This document shows, piece by piece, positions 41,750-45,642 of a stretch of 64,000 nucleotides of DNA. Numbering within the stretch: the first letter of the stretch is position 1; every line of letters begins with the position of its first letter. The notes under the pieces are model-generated. The model was not told where the DNA came from. It worked only from the letters and a program-made list of their open reading frames with translations, and did not search any database. The stretch comes from Gammaproteobacteria bacterium (lineage in GTDB: Bacteria > Pseudomonadota > Gammaproteobacteria > Burkholderiales > Burkholderiaceae_B): contig JAHIXK010000014.1 in the NCBI GenBank assembly GCA_018815245.1, positions 82,508 to 146,507 of the forward strand, written 5' to 3'. The translations under genes were made by a program, and so were the position numbers.

Positions 41750-43804
41750 ATGAGTTTTACGCTAAGCCTGACCCGGTTTTTCTCGGTGCTTACCTTTGGC
41801 TTTTTGGTGTGCATTGCGGGTGCCGCCATTATGGAAGACTACGGCATTGGCCGCCAATGGATTGGTTACTTCTTTATCTTTGTAACCCTTGGTGCCTACG
41901 CTGTAATTGGCTTGCTCAGCCGCACTTCTGACATGCATGAATACTTTGTGGCCTCGCGCACTGTGCCTGCGGTGTACAACGGCATGGCCACTGCGGCAGA
42001 CTGGATGAGTGCGGCGTCATTCCTTGGGGTTGCGGGCACTTTGTTTTACAGTGGCTTCGAGGCGCTCGCCCTGCTGGTTGGCTGGACAGGTGGCTTTGTG
42101 TTGATCGCCTTGTTGATTGCGCCTTACCTGCGCAAATTTGCGTTTTTCTCGGTGGGCGATTTTCTGGCTGCGCGGTATGCCGGTGGCGACAAGGGCAGGG
42201 CGGTGCGCCTGATCTGCGTGTTGGTCACCGTGAGTATTTCTTTTGTGTACGTAATTGCCCAAATTTATGCGGTGGGTTTAATTACCTCGCGCTTTGCCGG
42301 TGTTGAATTTGGCATTGGTGTTTTTTTTGGCCTTGCCGGTATTTTGGTGTGCTCGTTTCTTGGTGGCATGCGCGCGGTAACCTGGACTGCTGTTGCACAG
42401 TACATTGTCATGATTGTGGCGATGATGGTGAGCGTGGTCGCCTTGATTGGTTTTACCGGAAAGGGCAGCAGCGAGCGTTTTGTAGACGGTGGACCCACCA
42501 GTTTTCCAGAATACGTGCGCGCGCAGGAACGAAAATTTTTCTCAGACCCAGCCGAAGCCGAGGTGCGCAGTGTTTATTTGCGCGAGGCGGACCGCTACCA
42601 ATTGTTGATCGACACCTTGCCTTCCTCTTGGGCCGAGGGCTATGAAGCGCGGCGCAAGAACCTGGAGTTGGCCCGTTACGATGGCTCCACGTTTCAGGAA
42701 ATCAAAGCGGCGGAGAGGGTATTAACCAGTTTCCCCAAAGACCCTCAAGATGCGAAGCGCAAATGGAGTCAGGAAAAGCAGCGATACCTGGACAAAGTCA
42801 AAGCCAGTGTGCCGCATTTTGGTTCGATACAAGACGATTCGGGGCTATCAAATTCCAGGGCTTTGGTGAGTTTTCTCGCCGTGGCCTTTACCTTGATGTG
42901 CGGCACAGTGGCCTTGCCCCACATTATCATGCGGTTTTACACCACCCCGAGTGCGTCGCAAACCCGGTGGTCGGTTGTGGTTGCATTGGGCTGTATTTTG
43001 GTGATTTATTTGGCCTCGCCCTGGCTTAGCGTAATTGCCAAAGTGGTGGTGTACGAAAACCTGGTGGGTTTGAGTTACAACGAGATTCCAAACTGGATTG
43101 CAGCGTGGTCGCGCGTAACACCGGGCCTGGCCACCTTGCAGGACGTGAATCAGGACGGCGTGGTTCAGTTTGCGGAAATTGGCCTGAGCCCGGATATTCT
43201 GGTGCTGATTACACCTGAAATTGCAGGCATGCCATTTTTTCTCTCGGGACTGATTGCGGCTGGGGGCCTGGCTGCCGCATTGTCTACGGCCGATGGCCTG
43301 TTGCTGGCCATTGCCGGTAGTTTGTCGCATGACCTGTATTACCGGGTGCTTGACCCGGAAGCCACTGCGCAGCGGCGGGTCACCATGTCGAAAATTGCGT
43401 TGCTGAGTGCCGCCCTGATGGCTGCGTGGATTACCAGCATGCAACCCGGCAACATTGTGGTGCTGGTGGGCTCCGCATTCGCATTGGCAGCGTCTAGCTT
43501 GTTTGTGCCGCTTGTGGCGGGTATTTTCTGGAGCGGTGCCACACGACGTGGCGCCCTGTGGGCCATGGGCACGGGTTTTTTAAGCTCGAGTTTGTGTTTG
43601 GCACTGACCAATTCTTCTTTCATGGCCATGTTCAATCTGGATGCGGTGCAAATTGGTGGTTTAAGTGGTGTGGCCAGTGGCGTATTCACCATCCCGCTAA
43701 GCGCACTGGCCATGGTGGTGGCTTCCTTGGCTGGCGGGCGCAAAGACGAGGCACCGGCCGTAATGCGGGTGTTGCGCTTGCCTGAATCTGAAGGAAATGT
43801 TTGA
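41750..43804 (+). CDS. sodium:solute symporter, ActP/VC_2705-like carboxylate permease
   Basis: NGMATAADWMSAASFLG, GWTGG, GGMRAVTWT, LPHIIMRFYT, AAALSTADGLL; large soluble insert. Confidence 0.88.
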   Translation: MSFTLSLTRFFSVLTFGFLVCIAGAAIMEDYGIGRQWIGYFFIFVTLGAYAVIGLLSRTSDMHEYFVASRTVPAVYNGMATAADWMSAASFLGVAGTLFYSGFEALALLVGWTGGFVLIALLIAPYLRKFAFFSVGDFLAARYAGGDKGRAVRLICVLVTVSISFVYVIAQIYAVGLITSRFAGVEFGIGVFFGLAGILVCSFLGGMRAVTWTAVAQYIVMIVAMMVSVVALIGFTGKGSSERFVDGGPTSFPEYVRAQERKFFSDPAEAEVRSVYLREADRYQLLIDTLPSSWAEGYEARRKNLELARYDGSTFQEIKAAERVLTSFPKDPQDAKRKWSQEKQRYLDKVKASVPHFGSIQDDSGLSNSRALVSFLAVAFTLMCGTVALPHIIMRFYTTPSASQTRWSVVVALGCILVIYLASPWLSVIAKVVVYENLVGLSYNEIPNWIAAWSRVTPGLATLQDVNQDGVVQFAEIGLSPDILVLITPEIAGMPFFLSGLIAAGGLAAALSTADGLLLAIAGSLSHDLYYRVLDPEATAQRRVTMSKIALLSAALMAAWITSMQPGNIVVLVGSAFALAASSLFVPLVAGIFWSGATRRGALWAMGTGFLSSSLCLALTNSSFMAMFNLDAVQIGGLSGVASGVFTIPLSALAMVVASLAGGRKDEAPAVMRVLRLPESEGNV

Positions 43805-43864
43805 TGCCGTGAGAATGCACTGGATACCCTAGGGGATTCTTTGCTATACTCTCGCGCTTACCGC

Positions 43865-43955
43865 GGAGAGATGGATGAGTGGTTTAAGTCGCACGCCTGG
43901 AAAGCGTGTATAGGTTAATAGCCTATCGGGGGTTCGAATCCCCCTCTCTCCGCCA
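43865..43955 (+). tRNA. tRNA-Ser (anticodon GGA)
   Basis: GGAGAGA/TCTCTCC acceptor stem, G discriminator + CCA, CACGC-CTGGAAA-GCGTG anticodon arm, long variable arm, GGGGG-TTCGAAT-CCCCC T arm. Confidence 0.98.
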
Positions 43956-43963
43956 AAAATTAC

Positions 43964-43995
43964 AAAAAGCCCTAAACCAAGTTTAGGGCTTTTTT
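43964..43995. terminator. intrinsic terminator after tRNA-Ser
   Basis: Perfect 14-bp stem AAAAAGCCCTAAAC-CAA-GTTTAGGGCTTTTT. Confidence 0.9.
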
Positions 43996-44003
43996 CATTT
44001 CAA

Positions 44004-44261
44004 GGCGGAAGAGAAGCAAAGCCCCTGCGGGCTTTGCGTGGGGGATTCGAAGCTTTTCGCCTACGAGCGAAAAGCCGGGAGAATTGACACAGCCAGTGAC
44101 GCGCAAGCGGCGCGCAGGTGTGGCATGTGGTGTTTCGATACTCAGAGAATCATGCCGAGCGGCGATGTATGCTGCGATTACCGTGTACAAGGTCTCCAAA
44201 GATGAACCGCCCCGGTTGAGTCGTTTGGGGGCTCCTTTTGGGTACTTACCCAAGTCAATCC
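44004..44261. repeat. tRNA-associated multi-hairpin element beginning with an interrupted inverted copy of the tRNA-Ser 3' end
   Basis: GGCGGA-a-GAGA-[25-nt hairpin]-GGGGGATTCGAA is the reverse complement of 43933-43954; further stems at 44016-37, 44052-75, 44122-56 and 44238-53. Confidence 0.75.
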
Positions 44262-44445
44262 TGAGCACTAGTATTTAAGAGCTGAGCTGAATAAATGAAG
44301 TTTTTAACTCATTTGATAAATTACTTTGCTGTTTTTCAGTGTTTAGTCTTCGGCTAGCCAAATTAAATTGCTCTAACTACTCAGTGAGTTGAAGCTCATG
44401 CGGTGTAGTTCAATACAAGCTACTAAAATGATCAGGGGATGAGCG

Positions 44446-45507
44446 ATGGATTTCAAAGACGGCATTGCTGAATTATCACGACGAATTAGCTCCACAATGG
44501 AGCACGCCAAAACAGAAGAGGCGGTTAAGACTGCGTTCATATTGCCTTTTCTCTCCAAATTGGGTTATGACGTTTTCAATCCAACCGAGGTAATTCCAGA
44601 GCTTACGGCTGATCATGGCGTTAAGAAAGGCGAGAAGGTTGACTACGCTATCAAACTGGACGGCAAAATTGCAATCTTGATTGAATGCAAGCAGCCGGGC
44701 GCACCGCTAGAGACTAAACACGCGGGTCAACTATTTAGATACTTCGCTGTGACCGATGCCAAGTTCGGGGTTTTGACGGACGGCATTCGCTACCTGTTCT
44801 TTAGCGATCTAGAGAAAGAAAATAAGATGGACGAACGGCCATTCTTTGAGTTTAACCTTTCAGATTACAGTGACAATGACGTCGAAGAATTAAAGAAATT
44901 TACCAAGCCTGGATTTGACCTCGAGACCATCTTGAGCACGGCTAGCAACCTTAAATACATGAAGGCTTTGAATCTTGAAGTTCGAAAAGAATTCGCTGGC
45001 ACCCCATCTGAAGAAATCGTTAAAATTTTTACTTTACGGGTGTATGACGGAAGATTCACTGCGCAAGTTAAGGACCAGTTCACCGAACTGCTGAAACGCT
45101 CCTTCGATAATTTTTTGAAGGAAAGCATCAACAGTAAGCTGAAGTCTGCATTTGAATCTGATCCTCCCAAAGGAGATGGCGTATCGGATTTACCCTCTGT
45201 AGATGGTGATTCTGATGGTGATGTTGATACAACTCATGAAGAGGTAGACGCCCACCGAATTATTCAAGCCATCGGTGCGGAGTTGGCTGACGTGGATAGA
45301 ATTGTGATGAGAGACGCGAAATCATACTGTGCAATTATTTTTGATGACAACAATCGTAAGCCAGTCGTACGTCTTCACTTCAACAAAAAGAAACTTGCAA
45401 TCGGGGTTTTTATCGGTAAAGAGGAGCAAAAGTTCGACATTGAGAAATTGTCGGAAATTTATAAGCAGAAAACATTGATACTTCAAAGCATTCAGCAATA
45501 TTTGTAA
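44446..45507 (+). CDS. stand-alone HsdR N-terminal-like PD-(D/E)XK nuclease (353 aa)
   Basis: TEEAVKTAFILPFLSKLGYDV, EKVDYAI, LIECK, GVLTDGIRYLFF; visibly AT-richer codon usage than flanking genes. Confidence 0.8.
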   Translation: MDFKDGIAELSRRISSTMEHAKTEEAVKTAFILPFLSKLGYDVFNPTEVIPELTADHGVKKGEKVDYAIKLDGKIAILIECKQPGAPLETKHAGQLFRYFAVTDAKFGVLTDGIRYLFFSDLEKENKMDERPFFEFNLSDYSDNDVEELKKFTKPGFDLETILSTASNLKYMKALNLEVRKEFAGTPSEEIVKIFTLRVYDGRFTAQVKDQFTELLKRSFDNFLKESINSKLKSAFESDPPKGDGVSDLPSVDGDSDGDVDTTHEEVDAHRIIQAIGAELADVDRIVMRDAKSYCAIIFDDNNRKPVVRLHFNKKKLAIGVFIGKEEQKFDIEKLSEIYKQKTLILQSIQQYL

Positions 45508-45642
45508 ATTGAACCGCCCCTCTTTCCTTATGCACTTTCAGAATCAGAAATACGTTGCGCTTTTAACTTTTGTCTGAACTTCCAACTCTCCCGGTGGCGC
45601 CCTAAAGGGCGTAGATAGCAGCATTCAAATCAGGAGTACCCC

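Follow-up and report, generated by a model that had tools for sequence, protein, structure and literature searches.

The closest described counterpart of the element that we present here is RtT (RF00391; rttR), which has hitherto been a curiosity limited to the tyrT operon of Escherichia coli, unexplained since it was first described. In tyrT-tyrV of E. coli, each 178-bp rtT unit holds the sequence GGGGAAGGAT, which is the reverse complement of ATCCTTCCCC of the transfer RNA (tRNA) tRNA-Tyr, and each unit terminates in the 19-nt 3' end of the same tRNA; in the Rfam structure of RtT, GGGGAAGGAU pairs with AUCCUUCCCC of this 19-nt copy, and the four E. coli units score 133-137 bits with RF00391. 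A second point of reference is sX4 (RF02223), an orphan small RNA (sRNA) that has been detected in Xanthomonas as an RNA band of 280-300 nt (PMC3300014). Here, we have analysed a stretch of 64,000 nucleotides from a Limnobacter genome (Burkholderiales; 3.2 Mb, 35 tRNA genes), which we refer to as "the window" and whose only tRNA gene, a tRNA-Ser(GGA) on the plus strand, is followed by a short module of hairpins that contains an inverted copy of the 3' end of that tRNA. Judged by its sequence and layout, the module is a member of a new, Burkholderiales-specific family of RtT-like tRNA-trailer modules, within which the copy in the window is a variant without a direct copy of the tRNA end.

The tRNA-Ser(GGA) gene is located at positions 43865-43955 (plus strand; ARAGORN; Rfam RF00005, 56 bits), and its last 22 nt ahead of the terminal A, TTCGAATCCCCCTCTCTCCGCC, occupy positions 43933-43954, comprising the T loop, the 3' strands of both the T and the acceptor stem, the discriminator and CC. 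The exact reverse complement of these 22 nt is formed by two arms, at 44004-44014 and 44040-44051: the inverted copy begins 49 nt 3' of the tRNA gene, on the same strand, it is interrupted at two points, by a single bulged nucleotide and by a perfect hairpin of 9 bp, and it is separated from the tRNA gene by a bidirectional intrinsic-terminator hairpin at 43964-43995 (terminator scan), which consists of an A-tract, a 14-pair stem (A-T pairs counted) and a T-tract. This arrangement can be read directly from the sequence, as the initial annotation of this locus had described it, and the 9-bp stem at 44052-44075 that the same annotation had listed is likewise present.

The conserved unit extends from 44000 to 44125, i.e. 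over about 125 bases without an open reading frame (ORF), and comprises three hairpins (hp1-hp3) with purine-rich single strands between them. Its elements, all on the plus strand, are arranged as follows: the anti-acceptor arm GGCGGA-a-GAGA (44004-44014; direct reading), the reverse complement of TCTC-TCCGCC; hp1 (44016-44037), which reads GCAAAGCCC-CTGC-GGGCTTTGC with CTGC as its loop; the anti-T arm GGGGGATTCGAA (44040-44051), the reverse complement of the T loop and the 3' strand of the T stem, which pairs at 12 of 12 positions with its own tRNA; hp2 (44052-44075), a 9-bp hairpin of the form GCTTTTCGC-CTACGA-GCGAAAAGC, for which a compensatory GCTTTGCCC/GGGCAAAGC variant occurs; a nearly invariant box, CGGGAGAATTGAC (44076-44088); and hp3 (44089-44125), a composite hairpin with an outer CACAGCC/GGTGTGG helix. 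The element had initially been drawn as far as 44261: the additional stems at 44122-44156 and 44238-44253 and the GTCAATCC end do exist, but they lie in a species-specific insert, and the cross-species conservation, which runs from the tRNA to ~44125, gives way there to unrelated sequences. Two ORFs that overlap the module, at 44084-44278 (plus strand) and 43972-44268 (minus strand), extend into the same non-conserved insert, and the minus-strand ORF has no Pfam match; a small protein has been rejected on these grounds.

The hairpins, hp1 and hp3 and the box included, have been delimited on an alignment of 15 Limnobacter sequences corresponding to 44000-44128, which is also the basis of the hairpin and covariation statistics. 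Across hp1, hp2, hp3 and an ATTC/GAAT helix, 96.8% of the cells are paired and nine pairs have two-sided changes, with a covariation score that is not reached by any of 500 shuffles. In hp1, all cells (100%) are paired and 2 pairs show compensatory changes, and 7 of its 9 pairs covary in the wider family that is introduced below, as do 8 of 8 pairs of hp2; in hp3, five pairs have compensatory changes between two sequence variants, some of them via U-G. The bulge of the anti-acceptor arm differs in position among species, with GGCGG and AGAGA retained. Of the 13 positions of the box, 11 are invariant; of the other two, the first carries C in 14 of the 15 sequences and the second alternates between T and C. 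The GAAT(T) of the box is paired to the ATTC of the anti-T arm, forming a short helix around hp2 (with G-U in 3 sequences), and, by comparison with the relatives of the module, GAAT(T/C) is probably the remnant of a downstream direct copy of the T loop.

The inverted copy is more than a chance match, since the 12-mer TTCGAATCCCCC (≤1 mismatch) occurs 3 times in the 64 kb against 0.23 expected, a count that 0 of 100 shuffles reach, and since, of the 35 tRNA genes in this genome, tRNA-Ser(GGA) alone is followed by a reverse-complement match of more than 9 nt. The sequences of hp1, hp2 and the box occur once each in the 3.2-Mb genome, where the module forms a single unit with no tandem repeat; a dispersed repeat of the REP or MITE type has been rejected because the genome holds a single copy.

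Within Limnobacter, a covariance model of the module (model R1), which was used for the species census, detects the module in 17 of 26 species. The identity between species is 81-94% in the module, as opposed to 47-57% at the four-fold degenerate sites of the adjacent transporter gene, and in the two most distant species pairs it is 84-85%, against 68-69% for the 60 nt upstream of the tRNA. Because of this conservation beside far less conserved four-fold sites, we read the sequence of the module as being under purifying selection in Limnobacter, and not as a decaying scar. Those absences of the module that were inspected are internal deletions or truncations.

Where the module follows a different serine tRNA, its arms differ accordingly. 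In three other Limnobacter genomes (G007, G002 and G001), it also occurs behind tRNA-Ser(CGA), with the anti-T arm GAGGGATTCGAA, which contains GAGGG and matches the CCCTC of that tRNA; in G007, the GGA and CGA cores differ by ~4%, each arm being fitted to its own tRNA. The tRNA-Ser(GGA) of G005 has the T stem GAGGG/CCCTT and is faced by the arm GAAGGGATTCGAA (GAAGGG against CCCTTC), which complements the 3' strand (CCCTT to AAGGG) and is no copy of the 5' strand (GAGGG). In the genome of the window, no module follows tRNA-Ser(CGA) (G000:C10:180150-180285), where a hairpin is followed by GCGGATTCGCC, possibly the decayed remnant of an anti-T arm. At one further locus (L018, G004:C44:33788-33959), a full module stands behind a different tRNA-like 3' remnant (…GCTGGGCCGCCA), a second tRNA-like 3' end, GGTGGGGTTCGAATCCCCGACCCCACCA, lies ~55 nt upstream, and the arms mix the GGA type with the CGA type.

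The comparison beyond Limnobacter has revealed the family to which the module belongs. A second covariance model (R2), built from ten non-Limnobacter members that had themselves first been found by R1, matches 27 of 401 Burkholderiales genomes, from 20 of 167 genera, and has no matches outside the Burkholderiales in ~397 other genomes of the class. R2 recovers the module of the window (G000:C5:126508-126601, i.e. window positions 44001-44094) with 49.1 bits and E = 1e-8 per genome; this copy has the order that characterises the family, namely the anti-acceptor arm, hp1 with the loop CTGC, the anti-T arm and hp2, with arms that are complementary to the adjacent tRNA. Among the 39 distinct copies of the family, 33 are located 2-75 nt 3' of a tRNA gene, on the same strand, and the remaining 6 are second units of arrays or lie at an island attR junction or a contig end. 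The host tRNAs belong to nine species: Ser(GGA, CGA, GCU, UGA), Leu(CAG, CAA), Asp, Thr(UGU) and Arg(ACG).

Across these nine tRNA species, the pairing between arm and tRNA, examined position by position, is nearly perfect over 11-12 nt and ends at the junction of the T stem with the acceptor stem, the very point at which hp1 interrupts the anti-copy. Measured as the longest exact reverse-complement match, the agreement of the anti-T arm averages 10.2 nt with its own tRNA and 6.1 nt with other tRNA types. The anti-copy thus co-varies with tRNA identity, an outcome that the initial annotation had raised as a question. We have considered whether the arms could be the residue of a degenerate tandem tRNA copy, i.e. 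a pseudo-tRNA, and this has been ruled out, because the non-palindromic T loop of tRNA-Leu, TTCGAGT, faces the arm ACTCGAA: the Leu arm is the true reverse complement GAGGACTCGAA, and not the T-stem 5' strand plus T loop, GGAGGTTCGAG. The arm also complements G-U positions and CCA.

Complete members of the family are organised in the following order: the tRNA, usually a terminator, the anti-acceptor arm, hp1 (loop CTGC), the anti-T arm, hp2, hp3 of 7 bp with a conserved G-T pair, and a direct copy of the tRNA, which spans from C56 of the T loop to CCA and is typically exactly 21 nt long. A direct copy of ≥15 nt is present in 12 of 33 loci, 8 loci share the start at C56, and in some loci the copy runs 19-49 nt past CCA, so that it takes in spacer and terminator. 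The module of the window has neither the 7-bp hp3 with its G-T pair nor the 21-nt direct copy, of which it has GAAT(T) alone; on sequence grounds, Limnobacter and the genome G272 together represent a subtype with a different tail and without the direct copy, which the Limnobacter form appears to have lost. Since the direct copy is missing, the Limnobacter arms have one possible partner, the tRNA itself.

The resemblance of these modules to RtT is one of architecture. Like RtT, the module directly follows a tRNA gene in the same orientation, it lacks a conserved ORF but has an internal hairpin core, and its 5' arm is the reverse complement of the T-stem and acceptor 3' strand of the host tRNA; in complete Burkholderiales relatives, the likeness extends to a terminal direct tRNA copy through CCA that pairs with the arm, to tandem units and to a location between two tRNA genes. 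Because RtT units pair an inverted copy with a terminal direct tRNA copy, as complete relatives would, the architecture of the module can be equated with that of RtT at the level of sequence layout. The differences are equally clear: RF00391 (gathering threshold 45 bits) has no match at E ≤ 10 in window positions 43600-44600 and none at E ≤ 1 in seven related loci, and the module has its own core (hp1 with its CTGC loop, hp2 and hp3); its hosts in Burkholderiales are Ser, Leu, Asp, Thr and Arg tRNAs, whereas RtT follows tRNA-Tyr in enterobacteria; unlike that of RtT, the anti-copy spans all 22 nt, the complement of CC(A) among them, and a hairpin divides it exactly at the junction of the acceptor and T stems; and a terminator usually stands between tRNA and module. 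In addition, the Limnobacter form has no direct copy, hence no closing helix, and is a single unit.

In Burkholderiales, the same design is now seen in a family of its own that accompanies at least nine tRNA species, and because it recurs in this way, RtT looks like one instance of a general tRNA-gene appendage. A function that is tied to the tRNA 3' end is suggested, be it processing, the quality control of read-through precursors, or sensing. For such questions, the Limnobacter variant is useful, as a single possible partner for the arms makes the pairing hypothesis directly testable. Our literature searches have returned no description of a general class of such modules.

Within window positions 43600-44600, only the tRNA reaches an Rfam threshold, and sX4 is the sole other Rfam model that is aligned across the tRNA and the arm, with 39.1 bits and E = 1.9e-6 over 43860-44050 (gathering threshold 70 bits); in related loci, it scores 33-43 bits. 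Like the module, the sX4 model consists of a tRNA-Ser and a downstream GGCG...GGGGGG that is folded back on the tRNA 3' end around an internal hairpin, and RtT-like modules probably account for this orphan sRNA. The initial annotation could not assign the element to a named family; its layout is nevertheless that of RtT, with sX4 as a sub-threshold relative. In Stenotrophomonas and Luteimonas, tRNA-Ser(CGA) is followed by a palindromic terminator and an uninterrupted 19-nt anti-copy with no direct copy; these Xanthomonadales loci resemble Limnobacter in the missing direct copy, and differ from it in the uninterrupted anti-copy and in lacking the hp1-hp3 core. They are the only 2 of 76 diverse loci with this tRNA 3' end that have a downstream anti-copy. 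The anti-copy is lineage-specific, because so few of these loci have one, and a general property of tRNA-Ser genes with this 3' end has been rejected on the same count.

As for what the module does, we tentatively favour a trailer RNA that is made by read-through and whose arms capture the 3' end of the tRNA or, in complete relatives, its copy. Polymerases that pass the terminator would yield a transcript of tRNA plus trailer, in which both arms would pair with the T loop, the T-stem 3' strand and the acceptor 3' strand; the resulting long, branched duplex would take the read-through copy out of normal maturation, and its cleavage would produce a stable, hairpin-rich trailer RNA. For the arms of complete relatives, the downstream 21-nt direct copy would be an alternative partner, as in E. 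coli RtT. The transcription of the module, the strand that is relevant, the agent that would cut the duplex and the role of the released RNA are the parts of this scheme that we infer; what the data show is the anatomy, the existence of the family, the covariation of the arms with the tRNA and within the hairpins, the purifying selection and the preference in folding energy. A functional RNA that is cut from the trailer of a tRNA transcript is exemplified in E. coli by 3'ETS-leuZ, from a 3' external transcribed spacer (3'ETS); 3'ETS RNAs of this type are sponges for other sRNAs. The proposed RNA would be like them in being cut from a tRNA trailer and unlike them in its complementarity to its own tRNA, which they do not have, just as they have no inverted or direct tRNA copies.

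The folding of the read-through RNA is consistent with this scheme. The RNA of 43865-44135 has a minimum free energy of -121.5 kcal/mol (z = -7.0), with the 3' 22 nt of the tRNA paired to the arms, hp1 as a branch and the terminator hairpin as the tip of a long helix, and the separate folding of tRNA and trailer gives -110.1 kcal/mol, so that joint pairing is favoured by ~11 kcal/mol. The suggestion in the initial annotation that a cis-antisense RNA unfolds the tRNA thus has thermodynamics on its side; its second half, the control of the downstream nuclease gene, is unsupported, as that gene lies in the species-specific insert and the module is conserved without it. Several hints point to an RNA of the tRNA strand: the whole unit is under selection at the level of its sequence, unpaired boxes included, the arm:tRNA helix has 8 G-U and 1 A-C pairs, G-U pairs are present in the Limnobacter helices and the conserved G-T pair in hp3 of the relatives, and the orientation and position of the family, on the tRNA strand and behind the tRNA, are constant, which we have counted in favour of an RNA. 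By analogy, RtT and sX4, which are RNAs, would provide precedent. Some copies are located 2-8 nt after CCA, or between two tRNA-Asp genes, and because of that position these must be co-transcribed with the tRNA.

A number of observations weigh against a read-through trailer RNA. A good intrinsic terminator sits between tRNA and module, and a consensus scan has found no promoter of the module's own; a tRNA folds before the arms are transcribed, and the preference of ~11 kcal/mol comes from an energy model that ignores the tertiary structure and the modifications of the tRNA. The module is also dispensable: 9 of 26 species have lost it or have an internal deletion in it, as does the tRNA-Ser(CGA) locus of this genome, and after the integration of islands it stands up to 38 kb from the functional tRNA gene, yet it is intact; those integrations may be recent. 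Finally, hp1 and hp2 are Watson-Crick paired in 632 of 660 cells, with 5 G-T and 9 A-C and hence no excess of G-T, and many copies of hp2 are palindromic through the loop, which is more reminiscent of a palindrome in DNA than of an ordinary RNA helix; the arms, for their part, complement CCA and sometimes the spacer too.

These last features are what would be expected of a by-product at the level of DNA, which we regard as the main rival, though unlikely on balance. According to this explanation, no RNA function is needed: template switching, or a tandem-inversion duplication, seeded at the palindromes of the terminator and the T arm, would have produced the succession of copy (L), inverted copy (L') and, in relatives, a second direct copy (L), and a quasi-palindrome correction with the selected tRNA as its template would preserve the perfect complementarity of arms and hairpins. 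Along with the near-perfect hairpins and the complement of CCA and spacer in the arm, it would accommodate the Stenotrophomonas and Luteimonas loci, whose anti-copy lies within a near-perfect long palindrome around the terminator, the uninterrupted anti-copy behind one tRNA-Leu(CAG), the tandem arrays and the direct copies that reach 19-49 nt beyond CCA. It leaves unaccounted for, however, the homologous hp1/hp2/hp3 cores behind nine tRNAs, the conserved loop sequences, and the 81-94% conservation of all 125 nt, unpaired boxes included, next to saturated silent sites; moreover, such a correction is not known to bridge a 49-nt spacer together with an inserted hairpin. At the tRNA-Leu(CAG) locus just mentioned (L098, G341:C11), the perfect anti-copy is 23 nt long and includes CCA, and a hairpin similar to hp1 is displaced past the arm.

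The relationships among the cores have been compared in a tree from which the columns of the arms and the direct copy were removed. The Asp-type cores form one clade across at least four genera, which argues for vertical descent, and the Limnobacter GGA and CGA cores cluster, as do the GGA and UGA cores of G272, which argues for spread within a lineage with re-tailored arms; in G272, the tails of the GGA and UGA copies are ~90% alike (by eye), and their arms differ at ~8 of 24 positions, each fitting its own tRNA. The family thus appears, from its sequences, to have moved between tRNA genes over evolutionary time. Tandem units are present in G005, the CGA locus of G007, G289, G420 and G188, and a genome may hold up to 5-6 copies, behind different tRNAs. 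In the tRNA-Ser(GGA) locus of G005 (L011, C20) and the tRNA-Ser(CGA) locus of G007 (L021, C48), the repeated sub-unit is ~90 nt long (anti-T arm, hp2, box and hp3), it is present 2-2.2 times, and its boundaries coincide with the anti-T arm.

One might regard RtT-like modules, that of the window among them, as a widespread class of ORF-less elements that spread between tRNA genes, rebuilding their inverted and direct arms from the 3' end of the new host tRNA, an idea that we put forward as improbable; targeting would in that case be written in nucleic acid. Two routes to rebuilt arms are conceivable: either a folded att site would imitate the acceptor/T-arm duplex and be used by a trans-acting recombinase, or the template would be switched at the palindromes of the T arm and the terminator. 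In the CTX phage attP and in integron attC sites, two inverted target-like copies fold into a mimic of the duplex with extra-helical parts; the likeness of the module to these is an analogy only, and no recombinase is known for the module or linked to it.

The next rival after the DNA-level by-product is a non-autonomous mobile micro-element: the inverted and direct copies of the tRNA end would form a folded att site, single-stranded or duplex, which a recombinase acting in trans would recombine with the T loop of tRNA genes, and the Limnobacter copy would be an old, immobilised insertion. The complete relatives, which have the tRNA 3' end at one boundary and at the other a 21-nt direct repeat with the common C56 start, the tandem units, the multiple copies per genome, the clustering of cores across tRNA types and the presence of a module copy at each end of a G272 island are all compatible with it. 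The attL and attR repeats of tRNA-integrating islands are likewise direct repeats of the tRNA 3' end, with the T loop as a known sublocation of their crossover. The module differs from such islands in that it has no integrase and no cargo, and the copy of the window has no direct repeat and is situated at attR towards the chromosome. None of the copies inspected has a linked recombinase, nor is one found among the neighbours in the window; the window copy is single in its genome, its losses elsewhere are internal deletions and not clean empty sites, the Asp-type clade indicates vertical descent, the host shows purifying selection on the module, and the ordinary islands that use tRNA-Ser(GGA) carry no module themselves. 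On this evidence, we consider the mobile element a quite doubtful proposition; as raised in the initial annotation, it retains some ground at the level of the family (cores behind different tRNAs, tandem arrays, 21-nt direct repeats) and loses it for the copy of the window, which is single, is shared as an orthologue among 17 of 26 species, evolves under purifying selection and has disappeared by internal deletions only. The window locus itself does not have the marks of a mini integrative element or tRNA island, there being no direct repeat, no neighbouring recombinase and only a single copy, with absences that are internal deletions.

Islands have integrated into the 3' end of tRNA-Ser(GGA) in three genomes, leaving the module at attR, on the chromosomal side: an island of ~38.5 kb with a 45-nt repeat in G020 (C10:129008-167854; L008, L119), one of ~6 kb with a repeat of ~11 nt in G002 (C45:105540-111876; L016), and one with a 17-nt repeat in G004 (C16; L024). 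Since islands thus integrate in several species despite the module, the proposal that a DNA fold-back occludes the attB site is not borne out. We have also rejected the P' arm of these islands as an identity of the module, because no anti-copy is found at the left end of the island in G020 and the module is on the chromosomal side of attR. In G272 (C14 and C7; L067 and L070), ~300 nt are common to the complete tRNA and to the junction on the island side, comprising 17 nt of the tRNA-Ser(UGA) 3' end, the terminator and the whole module; one island attachment region of this genome seems to carry a module copy of its own. As the modules mimic attR scars and tRNA fragments, they may mislead the annotation of island boundaries and pseudo-tRNAs.

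The fold of the minus strand is also unusually stable (z = -4.3), and on that strand hp1 is followed by a pyrimidine run, which the scan has flagged as terminator-like. Together with the bidirectional terminator, and with the next gene that converges on the module at the tRNA-Ser(CGA) loci, this could be taken to indicate an extended bidirectional terminator or insulator, i.e. a GC-rich stack of hairpins that halts read-through and protects the highly expressed tRNA gene against antisense or convergent transcription; the match to the tRNA would then be incidental to an enlarged terminator stem. We see only a slim chance of this, because such a device needs neither arms that are matched to the tRNA over 11-12 nt nor a tRNA end in direct copy, such a module is missing behind most of the genome's tRNA genes, and the plus-strand hairpins have no U-tracts.

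The surroundings of the module bear on a last explanation. Upstream, the tRNA-Ser(GGA) gene has a sigma-70-like promoter, TGGATA-18-TATACT with TG, at 43821-43850 (plus strand; consensus scan), and the 60 nt upstream of the gene are 88-95% identical among close species. Downstream, the species-specific insert at 44126-45610 (plus strand), which is outside the module, has been delimited by blastn against five Limnobacter loci and carries an HSDR_N-type nuclease gene at 44446-45507, encoding a protein of 353 aa with HSDR_N and HSDR_N_2 domains (Pfam); synteny with the five loci restarts at ~45610, just ahead of dsbA (45643). The module is thus upstream of the HSDR_N gene, on the same strand, and it adjoins dsbA in three relatives, from which a leader or regulator of one of these genes could be envisaged. 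We regard this as very improbable and have rejected it on synteny: the nuclease gene is in a 1.5-kb insert that is missing from the relatives, other species have different inserts there, the tRNA-Ser(CGA) copies have a convergent neighbour, and the downstream genes are unrelated across the family.

Two local observations may be added. In G022 (C4; L015, L043), a perfect large palindrome fuses the module tail, in reverse complement, to the 3' end of the tRNA, with TTCGAA in the T loop as the point of junction. It stands where a contig ends, in an assembly that is fragmented and 4% contaminated, and has been set aside as a probable fold-back artefact of the assembly, although it could be a real inversion product. 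In G010 and G011, other inserts, of ~650-690 bp, are found at the same point as the nuclease insert of the window, i.e. at the 3' edge of the module, which, because of these different inserts, looks like an insertion hot spot.

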